A DNA stretch of 64,000 bases from Naegleria gruberi (GCA_000004985.1 GG738870.1); one strand, 5' to 3'. Positions 11,200 through 59,633 are shown, counted from the stretch's first letter. The notes: generated by a model from the sequence alone, not told the origin. A program made the numbers and translations.

Positions 11200-14100
11200 T
11201 TATTTTCTCTTTTTAAATTCTGAAAGCATTGGATTTGAAAGAATATCTTGTGCTTGTGGTCTAGTTAAATTATCCTTCTCAAGCATACTCAATACCAACT
11301 CAATCACTTGTTCAGAATATCTTTCTCCAAGTGTTTTCCGCAATACTTGAACAACCTCTTTCTGATCTTTATGTCCATACAGTTCAGAAATTGAAGTTAC
11401 AACGTCCTTTGTCATTATTTGATATAAAACTACTCCTAAACTGAATATGTCAGTGTTGAAATAATATTTGTAACCAGAAACCATTTCAGGAGATGCAAAT
11501 ATTGGATCAATATTATTCTCAAAACAATTCAGTCCAAAATCTGTGATAACACTTTCAATAGCATCAGTAGTCAAACTCTTGATCAGTAAATTGGATGTTT
11601 TGATGTTGCCGTGAATACTTTTCTCGGTACAATGAGCAAATTCCAAGGCTAAACATAATTGGTAAATTAATTGTTTGATTAAGTTTTCTGATAGATTGAA
11701 ATTTCTATTGGTCAGCTTTGAGAAATCTCCCATTTCAAAGTAATCCATATCAATAAAAAGCTTTGGATCTTCTGTACTAATAAACATTTCATTAATTTTA
11801 GAGATATGAGGATTGTTGGTATTCATAAGATGCACTGCTTCTTTTAGGAATTTGTTCAAGTCATCCTCTGATTTGTAATTGACAATCTTAATGGTTTTTG
11901 GATATGTTTTGACTGTATCAATTACCTTAAATGTTCTTCCACTTCCTATTCTTGCAATATTGGTATATCTCAAATGAGGATTGAAAACCTCACTAATATA
12001 GGCACTGTCTAATTTGAAACTGTATGCACTTGTTGGTTTGACATATTTGGCTTGGGATGGCAAGTTATCATAGAATAGCTCAATATCTCCACTTTTCACA
12101 TTAGCTACACTTGTTGAAGAATCTGCTGCTTTTTTCTTTCTCATCATCCATACAATAATCAACACAACAATAACGATAATGGTAACTATAATTAAAATAC
12201 CCAGAATCGGAACAATAACAGCTGCTGCTATTGCTCCATCATTTGTGCCTTGTTGAGTATTATCAATTTGTCTCAGATCACTGGATTGGCTAGTTGGTGG
12301 TGGATTTGGTGGAATAATTATTGAATTAATATATGGTAACTCTTGGATGGTGAACAAACTTAAATGAGATACTTGACATTCTAAATCAAAATACATCAAA
12401 TCACCCACTCGTTTGGTAATAGAAAGGAATGTTTTGATTCCTGATTGAGACCAATTATTGGAAGAGTCAAGGTAAACACATGATGCATTGATAGAGGTTT
12501 TGTTACTTGTTGATAAACCTTCAAATTTGAAAATGATTGGATTAATCAAGTTATCAACCTTAACCAAATTACTATCCTTGTTAAAAATGGATAATTCCAA
12601 AGAAGGTCTATTACTCATTATATTTCCATTGTCAGTATCATTATTAATCATGGTTAATGCATAGAATATTATAGAATTGTACCCTACAGTTTGAATTTGT
12701 GTTGAAAAATCATTTGGGAATGATATTTTGACATTGATTCCATTTTTAGAAATGTCAAATGTTTTGGAATTGAATTGATTTACAAGAGGTAACACTTGAC
12801 TGAAAATAGATCCATCAGATGATGACTGTCTGGTAAGTTTGTAATATTCGAAATGATATCTTGCCATTTCACTTTGCTTTGTTGCGTTATTAGAATAAAT
12901 ATTGGAAAGCAGAGTTTTCAAATTAGCAATTTCCTCAAAATGATTTGAATCCAAAAGAGTTTTGAAAATACTTGTAGAATAGTATTGTCCTGCATTGCTC
13001 ATTGATGTAAATATCCAATTTAACCACCATTCCAATTCTGAACTTGTTGAAATATTAGAAACGTTATTCAATAATTTGAAAATATTCGAAAGTGAAGGAA
13101 TAATTAATTGAACAACCTTTTCATCAACTTGATAGGTTAGTGAAGGAATATCTTTCATCATTACCAACATGTCAACAAGCAGTGAAACAAATTTGTTAAT
13201 TGTACCACCATTCAAAGTAAGAATGTTTTCACTCACTTGAGTTAATGAACCATTTTGAATAATCAAAGATAGCAAAGCATTCAGTGAGTTAATTGTGTCA
13301 ATAGTGAGTGGCTTGGATTGTTTTAGAATTGTTAATTCATCTCTTACATAATCAATTCTTGAAACTAAATTATTGGAATACCATGAAATTCTTTCTGGTA
13401 AGTTCATTGTTAAATTCCTTGTAAATTCACTGATTGATCCAAACTCATTCACCATTTTGACTCTTAATATTAAATTACCATCATAAAATGGAAATGAGGT
13501 TACAATTGTCTTTTTCAAAGTATTCGAAATAATGAATAACCTTTCATATTGTGGAGTGTCTATTTCCATAACAATAGAGGATACTCTGTCTTGTGGGAGA
13601 TTAATACAATTAATTGCAATTAAACTCTCATAAGCAGTGTTATCTGAATTCTTTAAATTGTCAACTGAACAAGTAAATCTTGGTTTAAAATCAATTCTTG
13701 TGGAAAGAGATAATTTTGATGATCCAACTGAATTTTTAACAGTCAATTCAAATTCATACCATTCTCCTTCTATCAAATATGTTGAATCAATATTCAAATA
13801 AATTTCAAATGAGTTTTCAATAAGAGGTTTGAAACTTGTAAATGATCCAAGACTTGGAATAGCATTTCTCAATTTTCCTGAAGCCAATTTCCATCCATAT
13901 TCCACAACTGCACTGTCAGATTCAACAATACAATGTAAACTTAAAGAACTGCCAGATGGATAAATAGTTGGAATGTAATCTGGTGTTATTTTCGGTGCTG
14001 AAATATCTGAATTCACAAGTTCAATAAAACCAAAGTATGAGTAAACATTTTCTGAAATGGTAACATTAACACCAATCATAAACATTCCTACTGATAATCC

Positions 14101-17100
14101 CATACTGTTAAAATCTACTTGTAATTGATTTAAATTTTGAGCATTACATAAATTTTGTGCAATGATAGTTGACTTGTCCGAACTAGTTCTGTAACAATAC
14201 CAAGAATAAGAAGTAGGTGATAAGGACTTGACAAATGAATCATCACTTTCTAAGCCAATAGTTAATTTGTTCAAGCTCAAGGAATAAGTTCTATTGACAT
14301 TTGTTAATCTAAAATCAATTGTCGGAATTTTGGTTGGAATTGAAAAAGGATAACTGATTTGTACTGTTGATTGAGTGTTAGTTTGAGTAGAAGTTACTTT
14401 CAAATTGGATGATGATGTACTATTTGTAATAATTCTAAACAGCTGCTTATTCAATAATTCTGATCTAATACCACCAAATAATTCAAACGAAAGTGAACTA
14501 TTCACACTAATTGATTGTATTTCAAATAAACAATCATTCTTTCCAACGCAATTCTCTTCTCTTGAAGTCAAAATGTTAAATGAAGGAAGTGATGATTCAC
14601 CTAACTTGATAGTTTTTGAAATTGAAGAAATAGAATTCATATCATTTGAACTTTTCAGTGAAATATCAAATGTGTTAATACCTGTCAAAATTGAACTGTA
14701 AGGAATTCTAATTACTGTCTTGTTTGAGTAATTATTCAACCATGAATTAACAGAACTGGTTGGTGAAGTCCAGTATTGAGATATTCTCTTGAAATGATGA
14801 TAGGTTGAGGGAATGACTGACCTAATTATTAAATCTTGGGATGATGGAATGAATTCAGGTAAATCCATAATTGCTGGGAATGATGCACCTGTCTCTGACA
14901 AGTCAACTCTAATTGAGAAACCAAACTGGGCCTTAATAATAGAACCGTTCGTAATAGAGTGTTCATATCCCAAAAAGAGTTTAAAATTATTTCTTCTCCA
15001 TTGACATTTGGTCAACTCAACTTGTCCAAGCTTAGCAATCTCATTCTTTTCAATTATCTTGTCGCAGCCATCAATCACAGAATCATTCAAATAGGTATTC
15101 AGAACATCAGAATATGAATAAATTAATGCATTTTCAATATCCAAATTAACACTAATTAATTCGCACTCCTTTCCAACATAATCCTTTGCACATTTGCAAT
15201 TATTTGGAGAAACACATTGACCCTTACTTGAACAAACATTTGGATCTGTTTGTATCTTTCCATAACATTCACTGTATTGACATTCATTGCCTGAAGATCC
15301 ATTTTGACAGTTGCATTGATTTGTTCTTAGACAGATTCCTTTTCCTGAACACACACTTGCATTATTTGAAAGAATTCCATAGCATTTGATGAGTGAACAG
15401 TCAAATCCATAATAATCCTTATTACATGTACAATTATTGTATCCTGAACAAACTCCATGACCTGAACAAACAGTGGCATTGTCAAATGTAATGGAATAAC
15501 ATTTCACCTTGTCACATTTATCTCCTCCCCATTCATATGAGCACAAACAACGTCCAGTAGTGGCAGAACATTGATTTCCATTCTTACAAACTGTCTGATT
15601 TCCAGCTCTAGAGCAATTGAATGTCTCACAATTTGATCCAGAGTATCCTAATTGACAAGAACAAATATTTGGAGAAATACAAGAACCAACAGAAGAACAG
15701 ACACTTGCATTCAATCTTGACTTTCCAAAACAATCAAACAATTCACAATTCGATCCATAAAATTCTGATTTACATCCACACTTATTGAACTGAGTACAAT
15801 TTCCTGAACTTGAACAAACAGTTGAGTTGAGTGAACTCACACCAAAGCAATCAAACTTTTCGCATTCCTTACCATAATATCCTTGTGAACAAGTGCAGTT
15901 ATCAATTGAAGAGCAAACACCTCTGGAAGAACAAACATTGGATGAATTAACAGCCTTTCCATAACAATCATAAATTTCACAATTACGTCCATAATAATTT
16001 TTGGTACAGTTGCAAGTGTCAACGTTTGAACAATTACCAACTGAGGAGCAAACATTTTTCAGATCATTCCTTACTCCAAAACAATTATAGTATTGACAAT
16101 TAGTTCCATAAAATCCTGTCTGACAAGTACAATTATTCAATGAACTGCAAACTCCCTTTCCAGAACAAACAAGTGTAGAATTCTTTAACACTCCATAACA
16201 TGAATATTGTTCACAGTCTCTTCCACTATATCCATCTTCACATGAACAATTATTTGGAGCAATACATTGACCATTCGAATTGCAAACTTGATTATTATTT
16301 GCTAAAATATTCGAACATTTTGGAAATTCACAATTAGGTCCTCCATACTGTTGTGGATTTGTGCAATTACAAACATTTGCATCAATGCATGAACCCCTTC
16401 CAGAACAAACTCCATTGCCATTTGCTAAAATGTTTGCACATTTTGGAATGTCACAATATTGACCTCCCCAGGAATTTTGACATGTGCAATTATTTGTGCC
16501 AATACATGCTCCTCTTCCTGAACAAACAGATGAATTACTTGCTAGAATGTTCTTACACATTGGAAATTGACAATTTTCTCCTCCCCACAAAGTATTATTA
16601 AAACATGTGCAATTGTCAGGTGTAAAACAAGATCCTCTACCTGAACAAACATCTGCTTGACCCTGAACCACTCCAAAACAAACAGGAATACACTCATTCA
16701 ATGTTACATTATAGAAATATGTCGAATTACAATAAGGTGTCAACTTTCTAATTCTATTATTTCCACTATCAAGAATAAAAACTTCCTTCTGTGAATTGAC
16801 AGCAACATCAACAGGACTATTCAATCTCAAAGTATCATTTCCTGAAGATTTTGCAATACCTGATATCACAGAAACAGTTCCACTCATTCCAACAAATTCA
16901 ATCATACGAATGACATGATTCATTTTGTCGGCAATGTAAATTTCCTTACTAGGTCCATAAGCAACACCAGTTGGTGAATTAAATTTTGCAATTGTTGTGT
17001 TTCCATCAATATAATCTGCAGTTACACCTCCTATGGTTGTAGAAGTACCAGATACATTCCTGGATAGTCTATGCAAGTCAGTTTCGGATATAAACATTTC

Positions 17101-17703
17101 AGTTGAGGAAAAGACTGCTAATCCATTTGGTTGAGTGGCTGCTATTGGCTGTGTTGTAATTATTCCCGATGAAACTTTTCTAATTTTAAGAAATTCACTA
17201 AAGTAAATGTCACCATTCGAAAGTGTGGAAATATATTTTGGACTGAAAATGTTAGTGGATGTGGCATTAACATTATCTTTGGTAGTACCAGATATTCCAA
17301 CCGTTCCAGCTATTGTCCTAATTATTCCATTGCTGACTTCTCTAATAGCATGATTCGAAGTGTCAGCAATCAATAATTTGCCATCAATTGTGACAGCTAA
17401 ACCACTGGGAGAATAAAGCTTGGCAGATGTTGCATTCGTATTAGTATCAGATCCAAAAGCTCCAGTTCCAGCCACAATTGTTATTGCCCCACTATTCGAA
17501 TCTATTCGTTTTACTAAATGATTTTTCGTATCTGAAACGTAAATTTCACCACTATTTCCCAAAGCAATTCCTTCAGGTTGATTAAACCCTACCAAACTAA
17601 TATGTTTCACAGTATACGAAGGTTGAATCGACAATACGAAACACAAATTCACAACTATTAGAAACAACAATACTAAACTCCTCACACCAACATGTTTCGT
17701 CAT
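11200..17703 (-). CDS. Giant type-I membrane receptor (2167 aa). Signal peptide, then NHL-repeat beta-propeller, then about 20 tenascin/EGF-like Cys repeats, then a long extracellular domain, one TM helix, and a cytoplasmic protein-kinase-like domain predicted to be a pseudokinase.
   Basis: ATG at 17701..17703, N-terminal hydrophobic signal (LVLLFLIVVNLCFVLS). NHL-like repeats (YVSDTKNHLVKRID, LLIADTSNHAIREV, IYIADKMNHVIRMI, VFILDSGNNRIRKL). Repeated CSGRGSC...C.C...G.NC modules. TM segment AIAAAVIVPILGILIIVTIIVIVVLIIVWMM followed by RKKK. Kinase motifs IGSGRTF, KTIKIV, DFG and SPE are present, but the catalytic loop reads HGNIKTSN instead of HRDLKxxN, so the catalytic Asp is absent. Confidence 0.8.
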   Translation of the reverse strand: MTKHVGVRSLVLLFLIVVNLCFVLSIQPSYTVKHISLVGFNQPEGIALGNSGEIYVSDTKNHLVKRIDSNSGAITIVAGTGAFGSDTNTNATSAKLYSPSGLAVTIDGKLLIADTSNHAIREVSNGIIRTIAGTVGISGTTKDNVNATSTNIFSPKYISTLSNGDIYFSEFLKIRKVSSGIITTQPIAATQPNGLAVFSSTEMFISETDLHRLSRNVSGTSTTIGGVTADYIDGNTTIAKFNSPTGVAYGPSKEIYIADKMNHVIRMIEFVGMSGTVSVISGIAKSSGNDTLRLNSPVDVAVNSQKEVFILDSGNNRIRKLTPYCNSTYFYNVTLNECIPVCFGVVQGQADVCSGRGSCFTPDNCTCFNNTLWGGENCQFPMCKNILASNSSVCSGRGACIGTNNCTCQNSWGGQYCDIPKCANILANGNGVCSGRGSCIDANVCNCTNPQQYGGPNCEFPKCSNILANNNQVCNSNGQCIAPNNCSCEDGYSGRDCEQYSCYGVLKNSTLVCSGKGVCSSLNNCTCQTGFYGTNCQYYNCFGVRNDLKNVCSSVGNCSNVDTCNCTKNYYGRNCEIYDCYGKAVNSSNVCSSRGVCSSIDNCTCSQGYYGKECEKFDCFGVSSLNSTVCSSSGNCTQFNKCGCKSEFYGSNCELFDCFGKSRLNASVCSSVGSCISPNICSCQLGYSGSNCETFNCSRAGNQTVCKNGNQCSATTGRCLCSYEWGGDKCDKVKCYSITFDNATVCSGHGVCSGYNNCTCNKDYYGFDCSLIKCYGILSNNASVCSGKGICLRTNQCNCQNGSSGNECQYSECYGKIQTDPNVCSSKGQCVSPNNCKCAKDYVGKECELISVNLDIENALIYSYSDVLNTYLNDSVIDGCDKIIEKNEIAKLGQVELTKCQWRRNNFKLFLGYEHSITNGSIIKAQFGFSIRVDLSETGASFPAIMDLPEFIPSSQDLIIRSVIPSTYHHFKRISQYWTSPTSSVNSWLNNYSNKTVIRIPYSSILTGINTFDISLKSSNDMNSISSISKTIKLGESSLPSFNILTSREENCVGKNDCLFEIQSISVNSSLSFELFGGIRSELLNKQLFRIITNSTSSSNLKVTSTQTNTQSTVQISYPFSIPTKIPTIDFRLTNVNRTYSLSLNKLTIGLESDDSFVKSLSPTSYSWYCYRTSSDKSTIIAQNLCNAQNLNQLQVDFNSMGLSVGMFMIGVNVTISENVYSYFGFIELVNSDISAPKITPDYIPTIYPSGSSLSLHCIVESDSAVVEYGWKLASGKLRNAIPSLGSFTSFKPLIENSFEIYLNIDSTYLIEGEWYEFELTVKNSVGSSKLSLSTRIDFKPRFTCSVDNLKNSDNTAYESLIAINCINLPQDRVSSIVMEIDTPQYERLFIISNTLKKTIVTSFPFYDGNLILRVKMVNEFGSISEFTRNLTMNLPERISWYSNNLVSRIDYVRDELTILKQSKPLTIDTINSLNALLSLIIQNGSLTQVSENILTLNGGTINKFVSLLVDMLVMMKDIPSLTYQVDEKVVQLIIPSLSNIFKLLNNVSNISTSSELEWWLNWIFTSMSNAGQYYSTSIFKTLLDSNHFEEIANLKTLLSNIYSNNATKQSEMARYHFEYYKLTRQSSSDGSIFSQVLPLVNQFNSKTFDISKNGINVKISFPNDFSTQIQTVGYNSIIFYALTMINNDTDNGNIMSNRPSLELSIFNKDSNLVKVDNLINPIIFKFEGLSTSNKTSINASCVYLDSSNNWSQSGIKTFLSITKRVGDLMYFDLECQVSHLSLFTIQELPYINSIIIPPNPPPTSQSSDLRQIDNTQQGTNDGAIAAAVIVPILGILIIVTIIVIVVLIIVWMMRKKKAADSSTSVANVKSGDIELFYDNLPSQAKYVKPTSAYSFKLDSAYISEVFNPHLRYTNIARIGSGRTFKVIDTVKTYPKTIKIVNYKSEDDLNKFLKEAVHLMNTNNPHISKINEMFISTEDPKLFIDMDYFEMGDFSKLTNRNFNLSENLIKQLIYQLCLALEFAHCTEKSIHGNIKTSNLLIKSLTTDAIESVITDFGLNCFENNIDPIFASPEMVSGYKYYFNTDIFSLGVVLYQIMTKDVVTSISELYGHKDQKEVVQVLRKTLGERYSEQVIELVLSMLEKDNLTRPQAQDILSNPMLSEFKKRK

Positions 17704-18097: not shown

Positions 18098-19195
18098 ATG
18101 CAGCATATTGTAGAGATTCTTCCACTTGAAATAATCGAAACTATTCTTGCCTATTTGCCACTTGTCGAATTGTTATTTTGTGCTTCAAATGTTTGCAAAC
18201 AATTTCGGGAGGCTGCCTTTCCTAGTCTTTCCATCAATTTTCTTCAAGAAATTTCGCTGTTGGCCACAGATGAAACTCTGGAAGAAATTAAAACTTTGCA
18301 ATTGAACGGATTCAATGAATATTCCCAAATATTTACCAACAAGTTTGGAAGAATAATTATCAGAAAAATTATGAGAGAACATGTTTTTGAATTGGCAAAG
18401 ACATTAGTGAAAGCAAATAAGGAATTGTGCAAAATTGCTGATGCGAATTCAGATATCAAGCCGAAAGATAAGGATTTCAGTTCAGTTCTGGCTGATGATC
18501 ATGAATTGATGTCTGAATTCGAAGTGACTTGTCAGTTTTTTACATATTTCAAAGGTGCTGAACCAAAAGAACGTATGGAAACAAATCAAAGCAAAACTTC
18601 AATATTTAGCAAATTCACTTCACTTTTTAAAAAAGAAAATTCTCAAGAAAAATCAACTGTTGTTGCTAGTTCAAAAGAAAGAGAACAATCGTTTAAGTGT
18701 ATTATGCTTGGTGATTCAGCTGTTGGAAAGTCATCTTTAATAGACAATTGTATTTTGAGGAATAGACCAGGTACTGATAGAACTATTGCAAGTGGATTTC
18801 CAACATATACTGAACTTTCGTACAAGTTGAAAGAGAAAGTTGTTTTGAAAATGTGGGAAATTACAGGAATAATGAAAGCTGAAACAATTTCTCTTTATAG
18901 TGCAAAGATTAATTTGCAAATCTTCATGTTTGATTTTGGAACTTATTTCACAAGTTCATTTCCAAAAGTAGAAGAATATTTGAAAATGATGAAAACAGAA
19001 TGTGAAACAATATTGATTGGAAATAAGAAAGATCTTTTGGAGGATGAGAATTGTAGTAAAACAGCTCGTGAATTTGCTTTGAAAAAGATGAAGGGAACTC
19101 TATATGTTGAAATGGATACAATAGATATTCAAATGGCACATAGTGTGATATTATATTCTGCATTGATATTGTTTTTTACGAATAATAAATTGTAA
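18098..19195 (+). CDS. F-box protein with a C-terminal atypical Ras-superfamily small-GTPase-like domain (365 aa)
   Basis: ATG at 18098. N-terminal F-box ILPLEIIETILAYLPLVELLFCASNVCKQFREAA. C-terminal G-domain motifs: G1 LGDSAVGKSS, G4 GNKKDL. G3 is the degenerate WEITG (no DxxGQ) and G5 is non-canonical. Confidence 0.55.
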   Translation: MQHIVEILPLEIIETILAYLPLVELLFCASNVCKQFREAAFPSLSINFLQEISLLATDETLEEIKTLQLNGFNEYSQIFTNKFGRIIIRKIMREHVFELAKTLVKANKELCKIADANSDIKPKDKDFSSVLADDHELMSEFEVTCQFFTYFKGAEPKERMETNQSKTSIFSKFTSLFKKENSQEKSTVVASSKEREQSFKCIMLGDSAVGKSSLIDNCILRNRPGTDRTIASGFPTYTELSYKLKEKVVLKMWEITGIMKAETISLYSAKINLQIFMFDFGTYFTSSFPKVEEYLKMMKTECETILIGNKKDLLEDENCSKTAREFALKKMKGTLYVEMDTIDIQMAHSVILYSALILFFTNNKL

Positions 19196-20078
19196 TTGTA
19201 TTTATTATTGAAGTTAAACAATATGAATTGTTGTTTTATTGTTGTTTGATTTGAAATTGGGCTATGAATCCACTGACTGATGAAATATCGGAACTTGGTA
19301 AATTGACAAAATAATGAAAATATGATAATCAATATGATGTTTATTATCTATTTAAATAGTAGTATTAAGACATGATTAGAGTTGGTGAAGTACATGTTTA
19401 GTTATGGTCCATGTACTTTTGCAAAATTTACATGTACCTATCTCTATCATAACTTGACCAAAATTGCTAAGAGAAATTCCCATACCTACTATTGACCATT
19501 CCGAACAATACTACATTGACAGTTTTCCAACTTGTTCAGTAGATCCAACAGTGATGATGAATTTAGTGAAAATTTTGATATTTCATCAAAATAAAATTAC
19601 TAAAAATTAATTTCCACAAATACTATTATAATATTGATGAAAAACAATTATGATGATGTTGGTGAATGATAGGATGATGACAACACCAGCTTGTAATTTC
19701 CCATCATGAAAAATAAATTCCAATTTCATGATGATAATCCACCAATAAAAACTACTATTATTACTACTATTTAGATGATGTTGAGATGATGATGTGAAAG
19801 TTTGGTGCTTTCATCACGTAAACCCACTCCGAGAACCATCATGCCTGCATAGAATTGTTTGCTGAATATTTTTTATCTCGTTTTTTTTAAAACAAAAAAA
19901 TCATCCAAATCTTTTACTCCAACAAAATCATCATAATTTTTCTTCAATTCACATCATATTTTGATGAGTATCAACAAATCTCGACAAACAACAAAATATT
20001 AATGGAATTATTTTACACCAACATCTTTAAAACATAGCCAACCTCATCATCCGAAGCAAACATATATTAATATTTATT

Positions 20079-29465: not shown

Positions 29466-32337
29466 CTAGTTCTGTTCAGTGTTTGGACGAGTTTGGTTCG
29501 GGCTAAGTGGTTGGGACAGCTGTTGCCTTTGGTAAGCAGAAGTGTATTTTTTGTTTTTGATGAAGGAGTCGGTGGGACGATTGTACCATGATGAATTTTT
29601 GTAGCAGTTACTAACATATACTGCGAGAGCTTTGTAGATATCTAGGGCCACAGCCTTGGGGAGTCGTTTGTGATTGGCCCAAATGGACCAATTATGCTTT
29701 GTGCATCGACCGTCATATTCAATGTTAAGGCAATTTGGAATGGAAGATTCAGGTGGGAAACGGATCTTGCTTAGGTTGTATTTATGAGAGATATCGTCCC
29801 AAGTGGCATATAGTTCTTGCTTTTCAGGTAAGCATTTTGGACAGGATTGGAAGACATGGGTCCAGGTTTCTTCCTTGTGACATATGTCACATTCACTATT
29901 AATGCCTAGATATATGGCATGGTGTAGGTTGTAAAATAGTAGACGTTGTTGGTAGTACGAGAGTTGGTGGTTTCTCCAAAGAGACAACACACAGTGGTGC
30001 CAGTTGAACTCGTTGTCAAGTTGGCCCATTATTGTTATTTCTTTTTTTTTACGTTCATTGTTTAGAACGAGTTGTCTGATGTTTTGGACAGGTTTGTGAC
30101 TATTGCGGTGGCACAACACCCATCCACTTTCGGTGGATTTGAAGTATAAATTCAATTCTTTCATAGTAATACTAGTTTGTTTCCATAAAGAATCTGTTGC
30201 ATCATTGTTGGGTTGTTTCATCATGTTTCTAGCTATATTTCTGGTTAAGGGAGATGTAGAATTAACAAATCTGCATACAGCTGCCATTCTCTCAACGCTA
30301 GAGATGTCTACAGGAGACATCAGCCCCATTCCTCCTTGCTGTACATCACCATAGATGATAGCCTTGGATAGTTTGAGGTTGCATCCTATTTTGGATTTAA
30401 TTGTTACACTAATTTTAGTTTCTAAACTCTGTAAAGTGGATTGAGAGACAGCATCTACACTGGAGAGGTATCTGGGTACGGAAAGTACCTTTGATAACAA
30501 TACAGTTCTAACTGTATTGAGTCTGAGATGTCTGGGTCTGAAATTATTAAGTCGGGAGTTAATCTTATCTATCAATTTATCTTGAGAGGGCGACCATTTC
30601 AGGTTATTAAGAAGTCTGGAACCAAGATATTCGAGGGTATCTTTAGGGTTGTTGATATTGACGTTATTAAGGAATACTTTGGCGGTAGACTTTTTACCAG
30701 ATGCAGTGACACCAAATACTTTGCATTTATGAGTAGCAAAGTGCATGCCTAATTGGTTGGCAGTTGAGTTGAGTTTGTGGAGGATGTTTGTCATTTCGTT
30801 GGATGATTCTGAAAGGACAATGATGTCATCTGCATACAACAACATTACAATTTTGTCTCCTAATAGAGAGACTCCTTTAAAGCCATCAACGATACTCGTG
30901 ATGGCATTGAAATAAATATTGAACACAAGTGGACTCAATGGGTCTCCTTGTGGGACTCCAAAAGTAGCATCAAACGCCGGTGATGTGGAACCATTAGCAA
31001 ACACTTTCACAGAATGTTCACTAATCATATTCATGATTAAATCGCATACTGATTGATTGAAACCTTGATATTTCAAGATTTCTTTCAGTTTGCTATGGAC
31101 AACGCTGCCATATGCATTTTTAATATCAAGGGTGCACATAAATAAAGGTTTCTTTTTGTGCCTGTAGTTGGCAACGACTGATTTCACTATCACGAGCTGG
31201 TCTGTCGTGGATGCTAGTCTTCTGAAGCCTCTTTGGGCTGGATGAATTAAATTATCCTTTTCCACCCTTTCCATGAGGTGGTAATTGACGTACGAAGAAA
31301 AAATTCTGTAAATAATTGGTAGAACTACTATAGGTCTAAAATCTGATAGACGTTTAGGGCAATTGGTTTTAGGTAAGGGAAGTAATAACCCCTCTTTCCA
31401 AGAGGACGGAATGGGATTTCCATCCACAAGGATCTTGTTGAAAGCTTGGCAGACTATGTCTAATGCCTCATCATTCATGCTCTTAAATACCAACATTGGG
31501 ATTTTGTCCCATCCGGGCATTGTATGTTTCATCTTTCCAATAATATTGGAGAGAGAACTTACACAGGCAGGTGGGATTTTGAACCCATTAAGGGAATCTA
31601 TGGATTGATAGTTTTGTAGGTTTAGTTTGGTAGATCCTAGATCAGTATTGAACATTTTGTTGAAATGTTCAAACACATTATCTGGGACGGATTCAACATC
31701 AAACACTGAACTTGAGTTCCTTTCTTTTTTAAATGCATATCTATAGGGAGTGTTGAGTTTGAGGTTGTTAACTGCAATTTTGAATGCTTCTTTTCTTTGT
31801 TNNNNNNNNNNNNNNNNNNNNNNNNNNNNNNNNNNNNNNNNNNNNNNNNNNCCCAAAATACAAATTAATATTGAGATCTCCAAGTATGAAAATGTGCTCC
31901 GAGTGAAACATGCATTCTGTAACTAGATCTGTAACTTTTGAAAGGATCTTGTGAAATTCACTTGAGACTCGGTGGACACCATACCAGTTGATTATATTGA
32001 TGATACCATCACTTGTTTCCAATTTTAGGCATGTCAATCTGCCTTGATAGAGTTCTTCAAATGATAGTACCTTTCTTTGAAGAGTACCTTTGATAATCGT
32101 AATGACACCGGCTGCTTTATCATCCTTATTACAGTGTGATCCAAATATGGAGCACGGTTGAAAGAATTTGGCAGCTTTTGAAACTTGATCCTTGAATTCA
32201 TTGTGTGACCAATGAGTTTCTTGGACATTCACTACATTAAGTCCTTCTCTATTAATGTGTTGGAGTAGAATGGCTTGTTTGTCTAGAGAGAAGGACGACA
32301 GATTACAAGAGGCCATTCTAATGCGAGGGGAGACCAT
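29466..32337 (-). CDS. LINE ORF2 protein (APE endonuclease, RT, zinc knuckle; about 960 aa, split in the track by the 31802..31851 gap)
   Basis: See the mobile_element entry. The frames of the two track ORFs differ only because of the arbitrary gap length. Confidence 0.8.
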
Positions 32338-33800
32338 TATTGTTGGTCGGAAGCTCCGTTCATATCCGTATCATCGTCGGATAGAGTGAGAGCTTCTTTG
32401 CCTTGTTTTCTTTGTTTTCTAGGCTTGTGACTTGAGCCAGAAGGTAAAAAGGTTTGCACATCTGTTGACAATTCAGTCAACTTATCGTCTAATGCACCAA
32501 TCATAGTATAAGTATTTTCATAGTCCGTATCTAGTTCGGCAAGCATTTCTTGTACTTGAGTATTCCTTTTGTTGCTATCTTCACTGAGTGTATTAATTTT
32601 AGTTTCAGTGGTAGTGAAGGAGGATTGCAACTGACTGAGTTGGATTTGGAGGGAAGTAATTTCATCCAAAAGACCGTCAATTTTAGCAACTTTAACTTTC
32701 ATTTCATTATTTTCTTTAGAGTGGTTGCTAAGAGTAACTGATTTGTCCAAGACGTTCTTATCGAGGTTAGTGTAGTGGGTTCTAATATTATTAATACTAG
32801 TATTGAGTTCCTTAAAATCATTTGTGTGTATAGTATTGATATTTGTAATGGATTTTTCTAACTCATCATTCTTAGTCTTCAGAGCCTGATTTTCTTTGAC
32901 TAATGAATCAACCCGAGATTGCAGCTCAGTGTATGCACTGGCAAGAACAAATCTGGTAGGATCTACGAGGGAAGCTTCTGAGATGGCGTGTTGAACCAAC
33001 TCCTTCACTTTGGTGATGAGGGAAGGTTTGTTGAGTCTAGGATTGAAGGAGAGATTTGTGACAACGACATCTCCAACGTAGATAATTTTGGTGAGTGTGC
33101 TTTTTTTCAGCTCTTCACGTTTGACTTTAACATAAGCGGTGTTGTTGTTAATGTCAAGTTCAGGATTAAGTTTCCACGCACTAATAATGACCTTTTTGAG
33201 TGCATCGATTTGTAGTTTTCTATCCGAATCCCAAGTGAGACGTAGAGTAGTGGTACTGACGTCTATTTCAGATAGAAAGTTGGGTTTATTATCTAATAGA
33301 TTTTCAACATTAACAGCCCAGAAATTATTCGAAGGGGAATAATTCATGCTAACAACTGACTTCACCTCACCGATCACCTTTTTAAGGTTTGGAATATTGA
33401 ATGGAAGGTCTACCTTATAGCGATACAGAGTGGAGACTCTTTGAAGAAACATAAATGAGTCTGTACCTTTCCACTCCTTAACAGCATTAAGTGCCATTTC
33501 ATGGCTCACAAAGTAAGCAAAGGCTACTCCTTTGAGGCCCAATGGAATGTGAACACCATTAACCCAACTCAGGTTAATGTTGTAGTGTTCTAAAATTTGT
33601 TGCTGGCTGCTGTTATCAGGATGACCCGCAAGAAGGACCCTGAATCTACGCTTATAAGATGGGAAGATGTGGCGTACCTGTCTACCATCTTTAGCTTCTG
33701 CTTTGGATGTGGCAGGTGTGTTGGCCTTCCTTGCTGATGTGTTGTTGTTGCTTGGAGACTGGTCAAGTTTTCCTCCGGGAGTCGGAGGAGTTTTGCCCAT
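32337..33800 (-). CDS. LINE ORF1 protein (about 487 aa from the first ATG): RRM-like domain followed by a long coiled-coil region
   Basis: The track ORF starts at a TTG (33857). The first ATG is at 33798..33800 (MGKTPPTPGG...). RNP1-like KGVAFAYF. Heptad-rich C-terminal half (LVKENQALKTKNDELEKSITNINT...). Confidence 0.7.
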   Translation of the reverse strand: MGKTPPTPGGKLDQSPSNNNTSARKANTPATSKAEAKDGRQVRHIFPSYKRRFRVLLAGHPDNSSQQQILEHYNINLSWVNGVHIPLGLKGVAFAYFVSHEMALNAVKEWKGTDSFMFLQRVSTLYRYKVDLPFNIPNLKKVIGEVKSVVSMNYSPSNNFWAVNVENLLDNKPNFLSEIDVSTTTLRLTWDSDRKLQIDALKKVIISAWKLNPELDINNNTAYVKVKREELKKSTLTKIIYVGDVVVTNLSFNPRLNKPSLITKVKELVQHAISEASLVDPTRFVLASAYTELQSRVDSLVKENQALKTKNDELEKSITNINTIHTNDFKELNTSINNIRTHYTNLDKNVLDKSVTLSNHSKENNEMKVKVAKIDGLLDEITSLQIQLSQLQSSFTTTETKINTLSEDSNKRNTQVQEMLAELDTDYENTYTMIGALDDKLTELSTDVQTFLPSGSSHKPRKQRKQGKEALTLSDDDTDMNGASDQQ

Positions 33801-33945
33801 TTTTTTTGAACCCCATATATATTGAAGAAAACCCAATCTCAATATCTTTTGACTCAAATTCTTCCCTCAAACTACTGTAAGGACATTAAATTTCCAAAAT
33901 AGTATTAAAAAACGCCAATTTTTCAAGTTCATTTAAGGCACGCTA

Positions 33946-35055: not shown

Positions 35056-35554
35056 TGAATGTCATTTCAGAATTTACATTAAAATAATTACAATTAAATG
35101 TTCAAGATAGAAATTTGAAGTCTCTTCGAAACTATTAGGTTAATAATTTATTCATTCCATTTATTTAGAGTGTGAAATATAAGGAATATCCTTTAACTAT
35201 TAAGGAACTTTGAACGGATGTGTATATTAATAAACAGTGCAGCCCCTACCAATTTCTGACCTTCCTCCTTCACTACTGGGTGTATAATCTTAACACAATT
35301 AAATTAGCACATGTCCACCTTGTTAAGGCAGGCACATTTTGTATTACTGGGGATTTATGTTAGGCAAAATCGCCTTATCAGAATGGAAGGAACCTATTTT
35401 GTCTCCTCCTTGGTCTTCTAGAACCACTAAAACACTAGACACAGCACCAGATCGCGTTTCATCAACAACTTCAAATCGTTGTTTAACATCCATGGAACCT
35501 TCTCTCAACAACCACACGAAAAAAAAACAGATGATTCTTCATCGTCATCATTCC

Positions 35555-38500
35555 ATGAAAAACCTCTGCGCATTGCCACTGCTACTAATATTATGCTTTC
35601 AAACAGTATTGCTATTCTTCCATTCATCATGCATTCAGCCAGTCAGAGGTGAAACATGTTTTGGAATTGCATCGAGCAGTTCAAAAACTTGTTCTGGAAG
35701 AGGTGTTTGCACACCAGATAATTTGTGCACATGTAATGTGGATTCATCATTGGGTTCTTCCTCTCCCTATTCTGGATTGAACTGTGAAGTAGATTTGTGT
35801 TTTCCTAATGCAATTATTTCTTATAATTGCAATGGAAATGGACAGTGTGAAAATGGTGTTTGTAAATGTAAGGAGGGAACTTCTGGATTCATGTGCCATT
35901 TGAATAGTACCAAATTGATGTGTTTTGGTGTGAGTGGAGGTGATTCAAGAGTTTGTTCTGGTCATGGAAAATGTTTGGACACGAACGTGTGCTCATGCCA
36001 AGATGGTTATACAGGAACTGAATGTCAAATTCCACTATGTTATGGTATTCCATCAACTTTGACATCAAGCGTTTGCTCTGGTAAAGGTACATGCAAGGGA
36101 CAAGATACATGCGAATGTCAATCAGGTTTTTCTGGAGCTAATTGTGAAGTACTTGGTTCAGTATCTTCGCAAGGCTCATCTATTGCAATTCCAGCATCAT
36201 TTTGTGGATCAATAATTGATAGTGATAACAGAACATGTAATGGAAGAGGAAAATGTATTGCCAATGACACATGTCTATGTATGGAAGGTTACAATGACCA
36301 TGACATGTGTCAGAGTACATTCTGCTTTTCAATTCCACAATATGATGCACTGGTTTGCAGTGGACATGGCAACTGCATCGATTACAATACATGTAATTGT
36401 ACTTCTTCTGGAAATTCTTCATTGAACTTTATTGGAAATGAATGTGAAATAGTTCAATGTTTAGGAAGAAATTTCCATTTTTACAATAGCACAGATTCAA
36501 ATGTTTGCAATGGAAATGGTTTCTGTTCCTCTACCAATGATGGTTGCATTTGTAAGGATGGTTATTACGGAGATGCATGTGAACAATTTTCCTGTTTTGG
36601 TATTTCATCAACAAGTGAAATTTCTTGTTCTGGAAATGGACAATGTTTAGATATTGACACTTGCTCATGCTACTCAAATTTACAACAAGGTTATTGGAGT
36701 GGAGAAAATTGTGATATCTGTGATGAAAATTACTCTGGAACGCATTGTAACGAAACAGTAACTTGTCAATCTGAAACTTTTTGTAATCTTTTAGGATCTT
36801 GCTTTAACAATACATGTCAATGTGAAGAACAATACTCGGGACCATCCTGTAGTTTGTGTCAGGGTGGTTTCTATGGTCCATTCTGTAACCATAGCTGTTC
36901 CAGAGTGGACACATGTCATGGACATGGAGAATGTTCAAGAGATGGAATTTTCTGTGAATGTGATCAATCTAATGAGGATGGTTATTGGGATGATTTGTCA
37001 ATGTGTCAAAAATGTAAGAATGGATATTTTGGATCAAGCTGTTTATTGAGAATCGGTGAAAGTTTCGGTTTAAATTCATTGGGAAATGAAATTGTAATTC
37101 CATTAGTGATTCGTCCAAATAATTTGCAGAATTTACTGAATTGCTCTTTGATATTGGTTTTGGAAAGTAGAAGAATGCTTGGATCCTTCCCTGAATGCTG
37201 GATTGATTCGAATAATATGTTGAGAATTACCATTCCAAAAGATTCGACATTTTCTCCAATTCTTAATTCTGATAGAATTGTTATAATTCCAAGTGGTTTT
37301 GAAAATGGTATTCAGAAAAACGAAACCATTTCCCTTCCTTTTGATTCTATCAATACGAAACTTGTCCTTCCAGTTGCCAAAATCTATTCGAATTCAACTT
37401 ATATTCTTCCAAATAGTGATTTAACTTTAATTGGTTCAAATTTACTAAGAATTGAAAGAGAAAGAAATCTGACATTTGAATGGTCTTTGAAGAGTAGTGA
37501 TTCTGATTTTGCCTTATTTCAATCGAATTTGAATTCAAGAATTTCGAGTGGAAAATTTGGTCAACTGACAATTACAAAATCTGACATTCCATCAACTGTT
37601 ACTACATTCCAGATCCAATTGATTGTTAGAAATCAAATTAATAATATTTCCAGTAATCCTACTCATATGACATTCACTGTATTGAAATCTACAACTTTAC
37701 AACAAGTTTACAATGGAGCTTACAATTTGAAATTCAATTTACCAACTCAAATTCTTTATGTACATAATGACATGTTACCATACAAGTTAAAATACTCTCT
37801 ATTACAAGATAATTCACCTATTTCACTTCCAAACTCTAGTTATTCCATTCAATTTTCAATTAGTCCAACACCTTCGGATAACACTTTCGTTACTTTACAG
37901 AATTCGAATGGTATTTTAACAATTTCCTCAGCGTATAACTATGACAATCAGAATAATGTTTATGAAGGATTCGATGGTCAAGTGTTTAACTCTTCCAAGT
38001 TTTATCAAATTATTGGAACTGTCACTCATGTGCCAAGTGGAAAAATTGTCACTCAAAAATCAATCAAATCATTCTTTATTAACAGAAATAGTGGAGCGAG
38101 ACCTGATTTTGATACTGGTAGTCTAAATCCTCTTCCAACACAAGCAGGTCCCGCAGCCATAACCATCCTAACCAATGGACACACTTTTGATTCAGTTGAC
38201 TGGGATTGTTTCGAATGGTCTGGAGTTGGTGGAAAGTGCAGTAATGAATGGATGGCAGCAATTGCAGCATCCAAAGATTCCAACATCCTAAACGTTCCAC
38301 TCGACACTTTTTTCCTTGCTAAGAATCCTCTTTACGTCAGAGCTAAGGTTGTGATTGCTGGCATTCCCTATTATCTCCAAAGCTCAGTAACCCCATCTCA
38401 GGGATTTGGTTTCAAGACTTTGAATGGAGCAACTTTGTACAGTATCATTGCTGGAATGCAGTTGGCCAAAATTGATCGAACCAATTCTCACACAGCTGTC

Positions 38501-39202
38501 TATTCTTGGATGGATTACCAATTTAAGGATACTGTGAATGGAGCCACACTTACTTATGAAGTTAGAGATCAAGATAATAACTTATTAACGCCAACATCGT
38601 CATATATTACACTGGATACTAATCAGAGAAAGTTTACAATTTCTGGTTCAAATATTCCAACAAGTGTTAAAGTATTGAAAATCTCAGTTCGTTTTACAGT
38701 TCCTAATTTTACCAATTTTAAATATAGAGCTTATCTTTATTTGGTTCCAGATGCAATTACCCAACCTAGTCCAACATCAGTGTTGAATTATACTGTTTTG
38801 GAAAATGGATTGAGAAAGTATACGTTAAATTATCAATTGACCAAAACATATGTTGCTGCCATGTCATCCATTTCATTAAAAATTGGAAGTCATAAGATTA
38901 GTATTGCCAATGTCGGTCCAAGTCAACTTGTGAAATTTATACTTCCACCCCTCTTGGATGCCAGCTCAATAATTGCTGATGTGACATATGTCGATAATAG
39001 ATATGTCGGTGGTGCTAGCTCCATTACACAACAATTCACATTACATTCTCTACCTGCCGAAAGTCAATCATCTGATTCTTTTATTCGTTCCATGCAAGAA
39101 TCCATTCGAACAGATGCCACAACTTATTTAGGTACTAATTTTGTAATGTTAATAATGAATATTAGATATTTGGGTGAGGAATATGATTTCCCTACCATGT
39201 AA
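35555..39202 (+). CDS. Secreted or surface EGF/tenascin-repeat protein (about 1215 aa from the signal-peptide Met). About 15 Cys-rich EGF-like modules plus a large Cys-poor C-terminal domain.
   Basis: The track ORF starts at a TTG (35339). Signal peptide MKNLCALPLLLILCFQTVLLFFHSSC begins at the ATG at 35555..35557 (an alternative ATG lies at 35531). Repeated CSGRGVC..C.C..G..G..C modules are like those of the 11200..17703 receptor. No kinase, and no clear TM. Confidence 0.75.
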   Translation: MKNLCALPLLLILCFQTVLLFFHSSCIQPVRGETCFGIASSSSKTCSGRGVCTPDNLCTCNVDSSLGSSSPYSGLNCEVDLCFPNAIISYNCNGNGQCENGVCKCKEGTSGFMCHLNSTKLMCFGVSGGDSRVCSGHGKCLDTNVCSCQDGYTGTECQIPLCYGIPSTLTSSVCSGKGTCKGQDTCECQSGFSGANCEVLGSVSSQGSSIAIPASFCGSIIDSDNRTCNGRGKCIANDTCLCMEGYNDHDMCQSTFCFSIPQYDALVCSGHGNCIDYNTCNCTSSGNSSLNFIGNECEIVQCLGRNFHFYNSTDSNVCNGNGFCSSTNDGCICKDGYYGDACEQFSCFGISSTSEISCSGNGQCLDIDTCSCYSNLQQGYWSGENCDICDENYSGTHCNETVTCQSETFCNLLGSCFNNTCQCEEQYSGPSCSLCQGGFYGPFCNHSCSRVDTCHGHGECSRDGIFCECDQSNEDGYWDDLSMCQKCKNGYFGSSCLLRIGESFGLNSLGNEIVIPLVIRPNNLQNLLNCSLILVLESRRMLGSFPECWIDSNNMLRITIPKDSTFSPILNSDRIVIIPSGFENGIQKNETISLPFDSINTKLVLPVAKIYSNSTYILPNSDLTLIGSNLLRIERERNLTFEWSLKSSDSDFALFQSNLNSRISSGKFGQLTITKSDIPSTVTTFQIQLIVRNQINNISSNPTHMTFTVLKSTTLQQVYNGAYNLKFNLPTQILYVHNDMLPYKLKYSLLQDNSPISLPNSSYSIQFSISPTPSDNTFVTLQNSNGILTISSAYNYDNQNNVYEGFDGQVFNSSKFYQIIGTVTHVPSGKIVTQKSIKSFFINRNSGARPDFDTGSLNPLPTQAGPAAITILTNGHTFDSVDWDCFEWSGVGGKCSNEWMAAIAASKDSNILNVPLDTFFLAKNPLYVRAKVVIAGIPYYLQSSVTPSQGFGFKTLNGATLYSIIAGMQLAKIDRTNSHTAVYSWMDYQFKDTVNGATLTYEVRDQDNNLLTPTSSYITLDTNQRKFTISGSNIPTSVKVLKISVRFTVPNFTNFKYRAYLYLVPDAITQPSPTSVLNYTVLENGLRKYTLNYQLTKTYVAAMSSISLKIGSHKISIANVGPSQLVKFILPPLLDASSIIADVTYVDNRYVGGASSITQQFTLHSLPAESQSSDSFIRSMQESIRTDATTYLGTNFVMLIMNIRYLGEEYDFPTM

Positions 39203-57819: not shown

Positions 57820-58025
57820 GTGTTGTAATGTTTGATATTGTGTTAATACGTGGATAATTTCATCTTGTTGTATTTATATTGAAACGACAATATTAAAGTG
57901 TCAATTAGGATTTGTTTTTTTAATTATTACCATTTCAGCATTGTTTTATATATTATTAATTAATTATTTTTGTCATTCCTCAATATTTTAAATTCAAGAA
58001 TATTCGAATTAGTGTGAAATTAAAA

Positions 58026-59113
58026 ATGCTTCAACAACAATTGGTTACTTCATCATCGTATCATTCCATTCAACAATTAAATCATCAAGCTCTTTTGAAT
58101 ATTTGCCAATATTTTGTCGATTTATCATCTTTATATTCCTTCCGATTGTCATGTAAATATATTCATGAGGAAATTTCCAATAACATTGAAGAGGAATTTT
58201 ACAAGTTTTATATTCAACACACCCTTTCAAAATTCCACTTTTCCAAAATTACTTCTCTATTCGATGAGGAAGAAGATAGGACGTTCGGAATCGAGTTGAA
58301 AAATTGTAGGAAATTACTGCAGGATTTTCTGAGAGAACCATTCATTAATGTTCAATATGATGAAAATGATTCTGATTTTAAAAGATATTTGGGATTGGGA
58401 GGTGTTGTTAGAGTGAGCATGTTTAAACCATGTGAATTGTTACAGATATTGATGAGAAATTTACACATCAAGGAGTGTGAGAAAATTCACAAAGTGCCAT
58501 TCCACAAGTATTTACTCATTTCTTCTCTATTTCCAGTATTGGATTGTCATGGGATTCAAATCAGAATGGATTGAGTGAATGGAATCAAGCTTATTCCAAT
58601 TCTAATAATTGTAATAGTGAAATTGAAAATGAAATTGCAGAGCTAAAAGTTTCACCTGGAAAATTACTCCTCTGGATGTGTAATCGTCCAGTGCATCCAA
58701 ATGATGAATTGGAGGGATCTAGCGATGAGGAGGAAATTTACATAGATGGAGAGTATGAGAGTAGTAGCAGTGATGATGAGGAATATGCCTATGTGGAGAC
58801 TATCGAGAATATCAAATATAATCCTCCATGTGAAATATCTTTCAAACTAAAAGATGCTAAATGGAATCCATATGGAGAGAAATCATTGAAATACCACTTG
58901 ATTTCCAATAAGCCACATGAGGAAAGAGTGGAAGATTACAAAATGTGTGACATTTTTACATTTTGCTCAAGACCTCCAAGTAGTAACTATGTTAGGAAGG
59001 GTCATGAAAAGAATTTTGAATTGGCTGTCAAGAAATTGAGAAGTAACTTGTTCAATAACTTTGAGAATATCTATACTCTCGATTGGTCTGGTACTATTTC
59101 AAGAAATAGGTAA
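58026..59113 (+). CDS. F-box-like protein encoded by two exons joined by a candidate 29-nt intron (58508..58536). Spliced product is about 350 aa.
   Basis: Track ORFs 58014..58574 and 58544..59113 overlap in different frames. Removing gtatttactcatttcttctctatttccag (GT...polypyrimidine...AG, length 3n+2) fuses them in frame (...KVPFHN|IGLSWDSNQNG...). N-terminal F-box-like LLNICQYFVDLSSLYSFRLSCKYIHEEI. The first ATG is 58026 (58014 is a GTG). Confidence 0.5.
58508..58536 (+). other. Candidate ultra-short spliceosomal intron (29 nt; the alternative is a frameshift)
   Basis: GTATTT donor, pyrimidine tract, CAG acceptor. It restores a single reading frame across the 58014/58544 ORF overlap. Confidence 0.45.
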
Positions 59114-59162
59114 GTTGCATTGTATTATTTCAATGTCATACAAAGTACATTTCTAATATATT

Positions 59163-59633
59163 TTGGAATGTTTTGGAATAGATGCTGGAGTATCTTTTGG
59201 CAAAAAGGATTGGAATGGTGGGGTTGTTTTGCCTTTACCTTATACAATATTGAAAAGGGTGTATTCATTGTTACTCTTGCATCAGAATCTGACTAAGTTT
59301 TCAATTCAATTTGGATCTATTATTTCCAACCTTGCCAAGTTCATTCCCATCTCAGATTTGATATTCTTATTTAAGGAAACCATCTACGGACGGTATTATC
59401 TCAACAAGCATTTGCATCTCTCATATTCGAAATTTGTATTCAAATGTAAATCTTACTCAACCCAATTTACAATCATTCCATTCAAATATAATTCCATTCC
59501 TTCCAATATTAACTCTCCACTAGTGCTAGTATTGAACTTGCTCCAACGACTATCTGATATCAGACGATTCTACGTATGTGTTGACTTGATTAAAAGAGCA
59601 GTCGTCAACCATCATATGATACATGAACAGTAG
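59163..59633 (+). CDS. Hypothetical ORF (156 aa; TTG in the track, first ATG at 59168). It may be a 3' exon of the upstream gene or spurious.
   Basis: Open frame only. The upstream gene's stop lies within a perfect AG|GTAAGT donor-like string at 59108..59115, but I found no in-phase acceptor. Confidence 0.2.
   Translation: MECFGIDAGVSFGKKDWNGGVVLPLPYTILKRVYSLLLLHQNLTKFSIQFGSIISNLAKFIPISDLIFLFKETIYGRYYLNKHLHLSYSKFVFKCKSYSTQFTIIPFKYNSIPSNINSPLVLVLNLLQRLSDIRRFYVCVDLIKRAVVNHHMIHEQ

Follow-up and report, generated by a model that had tools for sequence, protein, structure and literature searches.

An F-box joined to a divergent Rab-like GTPase domain in a single protein of Naegleria gruberi

An intact single-exon gene

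We analysed a stretch of 64,000 nucleotides (the window) at the telomeric end of a 418-kb scaffold of Naegleria gruberi NEG-M (GCA_000004985.1, GG738870.1). The subject here is one of its genes, at 18098–19195 on the plus strand, whose product joins an F-box to a divergent Rab-like GTPase domain. The gene is one open reading frame (ORF) of 365 codons plus a TAA stop (19193–19195), beginning with ATG at 18098 and without internal stops; the ORF list, exact-sequence look-up and ORF-length statistics all mark it as a complete single-exon gene. Exact-sequence look-up found the product identical to N. gruberi XP_002676681.1 (EFC43937.1, UniProt D2VGC1), a record named ‘Ras_like_GTPase domain-containing protein’ whose public gene model is the same single exon. 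Given the base composition of the ORF itself, stops make up 8.6% of random codons, giving a probability of ∼6e-15 for 365 stop-free codons, and the longest ATG-initiated ORF across 30 shuffles of the window was 160 aa. The N. gruberi gene is confirmed as intact, encoding both domains in one protein.

Domain layout

F-boxes are the handle that plugs proteins into SCF (Skp1–Cul1–F-box) ubiquitin ligases. That of D2VGC1 (ILPLEIIETILAYLPLVELLFCASNVCKQFREAAFPSLS) lies at residues 7–45 (18116–18232) and was delimited by Pfam, by a profile of the family's N-terminal region and by paralogue conservation. Pfam models PF00646 (F-box; 27.0 bits against a cut-off of 20.5, residues 8–39) and PF12937 (F-box-like; 26.6 bits against 24.3) both matched above their cut-offs and the motif LPLEIIETILAYLPLVELLFCASNVCKQF is present in the ORF product, bearing out the canonical N-terminal F-box proposed in the initial annotation. 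The family N-terminal profile matched the F-boxes of solved FBH1 (1e-6), FBXL17, FBXW7, SKP2 and FBXL3, and nothing else convincing. At the core F-box positions, the residues LP, E, I/L and VCKx[WF]R are conserved in the sequence and in the family motif table, which answers the suggestion that they be checked; Skp1 binding itself is a prediction from these positions.

The F-box is followed by a family-specific helical linker (residues 46–151; 18233–18550), delimited by the family alignment and the AlphaFold model, for which neither Pfam nor PDB gave any match. Two motifs mark it, GRxFxKxxLRxxVxExA (GRIIIRKIMREHVFELA in D2VGC1) and ELxxxxxYFxxF (EFEVTCQFFTYF in D2VGC1). Next comes a low-complexity tether rich in Ser, Lys and Glu (residues 152–195; 18551–18682), seen in the AlphaFold model and in paralogue conservation; it holds a short patch, SIFSKFTSLF (F..L.S.F), that is conserved among paralogues.

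The G domain fills residues 196–362 (18683–19183), as determined from Pfam, phmmer, AlphaFold and Foldseek. A C-terminal G domain of ∼140 aa had been described before; its assignment to the Ras superfamily stands, and its length is corrected to ∼167 aa. Pfam matched Ras (PF00071) best, at 41.9 bits (cut-off 21.6) over residues 200–339, followed by Roc at 39.3 bits (cut-off 27) and Arf at 24.1 bits (cut-off 22.3). When all PDB chains were searched with phmmer, Rab11A (5e-8) and Rab25 (1e-7) were best, then Rab35, Rab5, Rab3 and Rab6. The Pfam scan of D2VGC1 gave no match to SOCS box or BTB, nor to FYVE even at E≤10, and the F-box begins at residue 7.

The AlphaFold model was built with a 114-sequence alignment of the family and Rabs; the Rabs in that alignment make the fold test not fully independent. 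The model reached a predicted local distance difference test score (pLDDT) of 81.4 and a predicted template-modelling score (pTM) of 0.82, the latter speaking for the overall arrangement of the protein and not for the domain–domain interface; a single-sequence run reached a pLDDT of only 34. Residues 2–151, comprising F-box and linker, are helices, with linker pLDDT of 67–95. The tether has pLDDT <55 and only a short helix at 170–176, residues 156–188 are disordered, and residues 196–362 form an alpha/beta G domain with pLDDT of ∼85–97. Foldseek matched that domain best to Rab33, Rab11, RabA1a and Rab35, with a target-normalised template-modelling score of ∼0.75. The G domain is specifically Rab-like, not generically Ras-like, and both domains survive Pfam, comparison with solved structures, modelling and fold search, the profile-based check that had been proposed for them. 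In the model, a folded Rab-like domain would occupy the C-terminal slot where F-box proteins carry their substrate-interaction module. The hydrophobic segment SVILYSALILFF was considered as a C-terminal transmembrane tail-anchor and rejected: it is helix alpha5 in the model, and is not the hydropathy maximum of the protein.

State of the GTPase motifs

Two nucleotide-binding motifs named in the initial annotation are present and canonical in the sequence and the family alignment: the G1/P-loop, G205-DSAVGKS212 (18710–18733), matches GxxxxGK[ST], and the guanine-specificity motif G4, N309-KKD312 (19022–19033), has the form [NT]KxD. The switch-I Thr is also kept, T229 in RTIASGF aligning with STIGVEF of Rab11. 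The degenerate G3 reported earlier, WEITG with no DxxGQ, is likewise confirmed. It lies at the start of switch II as W253-E-I-T-G-I258 (18854–18871), placed by the alignment to Rab11A and by the family motif table; the Asp that holds the Mg2+ water is Glu254, and the catalytic Gln is Ile258. The Rab11A chain with which it aligns (WDTAGL) bears Leu at the catalytic-Gln position. G5 is degenerate as well, with EMDTID aligning to ETSALD so that MDT replaces SAK/SAL; the family consensus is EITNT.

The protein ends in ...LILFFTNNKL, 3 residues past helix alpha5, and no C-terminal Cys prenylation motif (CC, CxC or CaaX) was found there. Rabs are recognised by the RabF signature stretches IGxDF, KLQIWD, RFRSIT, YYRGA and LVYDIT. 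The family consensus keeps stretches of this type (TIGxDF, LQLWD, GPERFRSIT, YYRGAS and FDLT), and D2VGC1 has remnants only, namely IASGF, LKMWE and FMFDFG.

A GTPase-dead or binding-only module was predicted earlier, and impaired hydrolysis is a reasonable expectation because Ile258 stands at the catalytic Gln and Glu254 at the G3 Asp, with P-loop, switch-I Thr and NKxD intact. From these motifs we fairly infer that the G domain of D2VGC1 is GTPase-impaired and probably still binds nucleotide.

A Naegleria family with the same architecture

We searched 1.84 billion representative proteins exhaustively with HMMER and obtained 273 matches, mostly ordinary Rabs at ∼37–50 bits. Full-length matches to D2VGC1 were limited to ∼10 proteins of 360–415 aa: D2VLL9 (91 bits), D2VGZ7, D2VFW7, D2VM38, D2VTJ2 and D2VDW1 from N. 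gruberi, A0A6A5BUG7 and A0A6A5BY04 from N. fowleri, and two metagenome proteins. Pfam found Ras in all of these and an F-box above cut-off in most. The search for relatives with the same architecture that had been recommended was in this way successful, yielding at least 10 collinear paralogues that share the linker motifs. No paralogue was found by tblastn within the 64-kb window.

The faster word-index searches were much less informative. With the single sequence they returned only a 206-aa metagenome fragment and generic Rabs, and with the N-terminal family profile one protein. The full-length profile returned generic Rabs and missed the family's own members. All of these searches are therefore mute on FYVE–F-box–GTPase relatives. 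As side matches, the profile search gave RING plus Ras in a protein of the animal Allacma fusca and in a Logan assembly protein, and zinc-ribbon plus Ras in two further clusters.

Eleven family members align end to end, linker motifs included. The F-box is the best-conserved region among paralogues, with a majority-residue fraction of 0.53. In the linker R93, Y147, F148 and F151 are nearly invariant; in the G domain G205, G210 and D312 are invariant, and K211 and K310 nearly so. D2VGC1 retains every family-invariant residue (P9, V32, R37, K200, G205, G210, E303 and D312), and has NKKD at G4 where most members have TKxD. As these alignments indicate, the F-box–Rab-like fusion is ancient and under constraint.

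Of the 11 aligned members, 10 have had the catalytic Gln replaced or have lost it: five have Pro there (WDxxGPERF), four lack the residue along with most of G3, and D2VGC1 has Ile. D2VTJ2 alone keeps it. In some members the P-loop Lys or Ser/Thr is gone as well. Near-universal loss of the Gln beside an invariant guanine-binding Asp fits a domain that binds nucleotide and does not cycle fast. The family appears to preserve guanine-nucleotide binding more than hydrolysis, with some members on the way to becoming pseudo-GTPases.

An N. gruberi protein encoded outside the window, XP_002672613.1, is listed as ‘Ran + F-box’ in Table S8 of Herman et al. 2021. Its full length, with the linker motif YFSHF, can be aligned to the ‘Rab + F-box’ subgroup, and it is the only member to keep the catalytic Gln (GQEKF). 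This suggests either a single ancestral fusion in which the G domain diverged afterwards, or an issue of classification.

An environmental allele

A metagenome contig (ENA ERZ929261 k127_56076, L001) is 97–98% identical to the window over 18371–19407. Across 18533–19192, which covers tether and G domain, the two differ by 3 non-synonymous and 3 synonymous substitutions, a ratio of non-synonymous to synonymous polymorphism (pN/pS) of ∼0.24; overall the ratio is 0.42, from only 11 substitutions. Too few to be firm, these figures give a hint of constraint on the G domain.

At window position 18533 the contig carries a 180-nt insertion (L001 164–343) that contains in-frame stops and whose reverse complement can be read as an open frame of 60 codons (YGALRNEGIIFLKKLVESISVEE...). 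An intron was rejected for want of GT..AG boundaries at either junction on either strand; no target-site duplication was found, and the window holds no copy of the insertion. Its source is either a chimeric assembly or a genuine disruption carried by a related Naegleria strain. A prokaryotic gene caller run on the contig called only the C-terminal 206 aa, from Met160.

Relation to described proteins

Finding an F-box on a Naegleria Rab-like protein is already known at catalogue level. Herman et al. 2021 (BMC Biol 19:142, PMC8296547) revised the annotation of Ras-superfamily proteins in N. gruberi and N. fowleri and described three F-box–Rab-like expansions, specific to Naegleria, that evolve by birth and death and include disrupted members. 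Each subgroup has a conserved N-terminal extension recognisable as an F-box, and one carries a CaaX motif (PMC8296547). Their Table S8 lists XP_002676681.1 as ‘Rab’ with additional domain ‘F-box’, its model uncorrected, not flagged as a pseudogene and without an orthologue outside Heterolobosea. D2VGC1 belongs to a subgroup with XP_002675157, XP_002676638, XP_002677004 and XP_002677810 and lacks CaaX, unlike one of the three subgroups. The same study found the F-box to be the commonest additional domain of Naegleria GTPases (on Rab, Rho and Ran as well as G-alpha), proposed ‘GTPase-dependent ubiquitination’, thereby already voicing the idea of SCF coupling, and called specific functional prediction impossible (PMC8296547). 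The description of the domain combination as uncommon accordingly holds across eukaryotes and fails within Naegleria, where it is both common and published. What is added here is the family-wide replacement or loss of the G3 Gln (to Pro or with the motif) with the guanine-binding Asp kept, the linker motifs, a confident full-length model and a negative test of kinship with the FYVE–F-box–GTPase proteins (FRPs) of Euglenozoa.

Euglenozoa and Heterolobosea are grouped together in Discoba. TbFRP, an FRP, is rapidly processed, and no N. gruberi orthologue was found (Abbasi & Field 2013, PMC3593210). Like D2VGC1, FRPs have an F-box N-terminal to a divergent Ras-superfamily G domain and lack the catalytic Gln (DISGHPRF or DISGEPRF). 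They differ in having a FYVE domain, absent from the Naegleria protein, and in having lost NKxD, which D2VGC1 keeps as NKKD. Kinship beyond the shared domains found no support: hhalign aligned the G domains only (97.9% probability over 149 columns), not the F-box or linker, in a rough test with six FRP sequences rebuilt from the optically scanned supplement of Abbasi & Field 2013. A shared ancestral fusion is not supported by these alignments, and independent fusion seems the simpler reading.

Two other families couple a small-GTPase domain to a cullin-RING ligase (CRL). Rab40 combines a Rab G domain with the adaptor box of a cullin-RING ligase, CRL5, and recruits ubiquitination substrates through its GTPase (PMC8129794, PMC10509765). 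Its adaptor is a C-terminal SOCS box that binds ElonginB/C–Cul5, whereas D2VGC1 has an N-terminal F-box and nothing after the G domain. Canonical G motifs and prenylation are also retained in Rab40. RhoBTB, which acts with CUL3 (PMC4931677, PMC3812982) and is also present in Naegleria (PMC8296547), has its cullin adaptor module fused to a G domain that is atypical and deficient in hydrolysis. In RhoBTB an N-terminal Rho-type G domain precedes a C-terminal tandem BTB for CRL3; D2VGC1 has a G domain closest to Rab and no BTB. Because it lacks both SOCS box and BTB domain, D2VGC1 is a member of neither family.

With canonical Rabs, of which Rab11A and Rab25 are the closest solved, D2VGC1 shares the fold, the P-loop GDSxVGKS, the switch-I Thr and NKxD. 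It differs from them in its low identity (∼20–25%), in ExxGI for DxxGQ and MDT for SAK/SAL, in lacking a hypervariable tail and Cys prenylation motif, and in its N-terminal extension of 195 residues.

Possible roles

The reading we favour, at roughly even chances on present sequence, model and analogy, is that D2VGC1 would be a substrate receptor of the SCF ligase. Its binding module would be a Rab-like domain that binds nucleotide, is impaired in hydrolysis and is not prenylated. The SCF coupling and the substrate trap put forward in the initial annotation are both hypotheses. The F-box would dock this soluble protein on Skp1–Cul1–Rbx1, and the Rab-like domain would stand in for the WD40, LRR or Kelch module that usually binds the substrate. 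Because hydrolysis would be crippled, the domain is most likely held in one nucleotide state, acting either as a slow switch independent of guanine-nucleotide exchange factors and GTPase-activating proteins or as an ‘effector-binding’ surface that is constitutive. Partners would then be shown a ‘switch’ face that is loaded with nucleotide and largely static, and would be brought to the ubiquitin-conjugating enzyme (E2) and ubiquitinated. By analogy D2VGC1 would represent the F-box/CRL1 counterpart of Rab40 (SOCS box, CRL5) and RhoBTB (BTB, CRL3).

Were this mechanism true, Naegleria would have independently built a large set of CRL1 receptors from GTPase domains (the F-box together with a Rab-like, Rho, Ran or G-alpha domain). 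Ubiquitination would be directly dependent on, or targeted by, small-GTPase surfaces, a third independent solution beside Rab40–CRL5 and RhoBTB–CRL3. The family also offers a natural series of G domains at different stages toward pseudo-GTPase. The value of D2VGC1 itself is modest, as one catalogued, divergent, lineage-specific paralogue.

Several observations weigh against a receptor role for D2VGC1. The change of the G3 Asp to Glu254 may bear on Mg2+ and nucleotide binding, and the protein is the most deviant member of its family in switch II (WEITGIMKAE, where the family has WDxxGPERF). No paralogue is more than 30% identical to it, and N. fowleri offers no close counterpart, the best match in the exhaustive HMMER search being 27% identical. 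The pTM leaves the interface between the domains aside. In the comparison with the environmental contig, the linker has 4 non-synonymous substitutions and 1 synonymous (pN/pS ∼0.9), and the 180-nt insertion disrupts the only near-identical environmental copy of the gene; both would fit relaxed constraint.

Alternatively, the F-box could be a turnover handle: the GTPase would be the signalling unit, auto-ubiquitinated and short-lived, so as to make a rapidly resettable switch. It is textbook knowledge that F-box proteins are commonly auto-ubiquitinated, and the same proposal was made for the rapidly processed TbFRP (Abbasi & Field 2013, PMC3593210). This is possible, if unlikely, for D2VGC1, since a protein without the catalytic Gln, with degenerate switch II and G5 and without a membrane anchor would make a poor signalling switch. 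In addition, several paralogues have lost P-loop or G3 residues and kept F-box and linker, which argues that the G domain serves as a binding surface.

Some of the observations against a receptor role would also suit a recently born, decaying paralogue without a function of its own, drifting in a birth-and-death family. Such dynamics, with disrupted members, are documented in these clades (Herman et al. 2021, PMC8296547); D2VGC1 has the most degenerate G3 and low identity to its relatives, and both the pN/pS ratios (overall and for the linker, from 11 substitutions) and the stops in the environmental allele point the same way. We nonetheless rate decay as rather unlikely. The 365 codons are intact against the frequency of random stops, all family-invariant residues are kept, and Table S8 does not flag the gene as a pseudogene. 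The low ratio in tether and G domain also speaks against drift, and the contig insertion may stem from chimeric assembly.

A cullin-independent Skp1 complex in membrane traffic, with the Rab-like domain engaging the trafficking machinery, is distinctly improbable. Yeast Rcy1–Skp1 works with the Rab11-type Ypt31/32, and Rcy1 and RAVE are textbook cases of cullin-independent Skp1–F-box complexes; among solved structures, Rab11A and Rab25 stand nearest to the G domain. D2VGC1, however, has neither a prenylation motif nor another membrane anchor, and has largely lost the signature motifs of the Rab family.

Highly improbable, in our estimate, is the idea that the Naegleria F-box–Rab-like proteins are ‘integrated decoys’, fast-evolving Rab mimics without catalysis or lipid anchor that are wired to SCF. 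Proteins that grab host Rabs, with effectors of Legionella and other intracellular bacteria or of amoeba-infecting giant viruses as candidates, could be captured and ubiquitinated, and the system could be a cell-autonomous immune trap like the integrated decoy domains of plant NLRs. Such a role would be compatible with birth-and-death evolution, with catalytic loss beside F-box retention, and with the remark of Herman et al. on the ‘organism-environment interface’.

It is scarcely credible that an adjacent F-box gene and small GTPase gene were read as one, as the initial annotation had allowed and as the gene caller's retention of only the C-terminal part of the homologous contig might suggest, because conserved sequence lies between the two domains, one stop-free frame with an identical GenBank model spans 18098–19195, at least 10 paralogues in two species are collinear with conserved linker motifs, and the split of the contig stems from the insertion absent from the window.

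Genomic neighbourhood

The genes flanking the F-box–Rab-like gene are unrelated to it. Upstream and divergent from it, across an intergenic region of 394 bp, lies a gene on the minus strand (11200–17703) for a predicted receptor of 2167 aa with NHL repeats, ∼20 teneurin-type EGF repeats, a transmembrane segment and a C-terminal protein kinase. Downstream are a small ORF without a Pfam match and a GH38 alpha-mannosidase. Exact-sequence look-up identified five of nine ORFs in the neighbourhood as annotated N. gruberi NEG-M proteins as well.

The start of the window has two (CCCAAA)n telomere-type tracts in the same orientation, at 1–430 and 1140–1590, with subtelomeric DNA and runs of N between them. 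A 270-bp subtelomeric segment is duplicated at 707–976 and 2011–2280 with 93.7% identity. The tracts look like either a scaffold end with two stacked copies of the chromosome end, or a genuine interstitial telomere tract.

A second EGF-rich ORF, of 1287 aa, lies at 35339–39202. Adjacent or overlapping ORFs on the same strand were noted at 29466–33857 on the minus strand (805, 189 and 506 aa) and at 58014–59633 on the plus strand (186, 189 and 156 aa); each run looks like a single gene split by short introns or frame changes.

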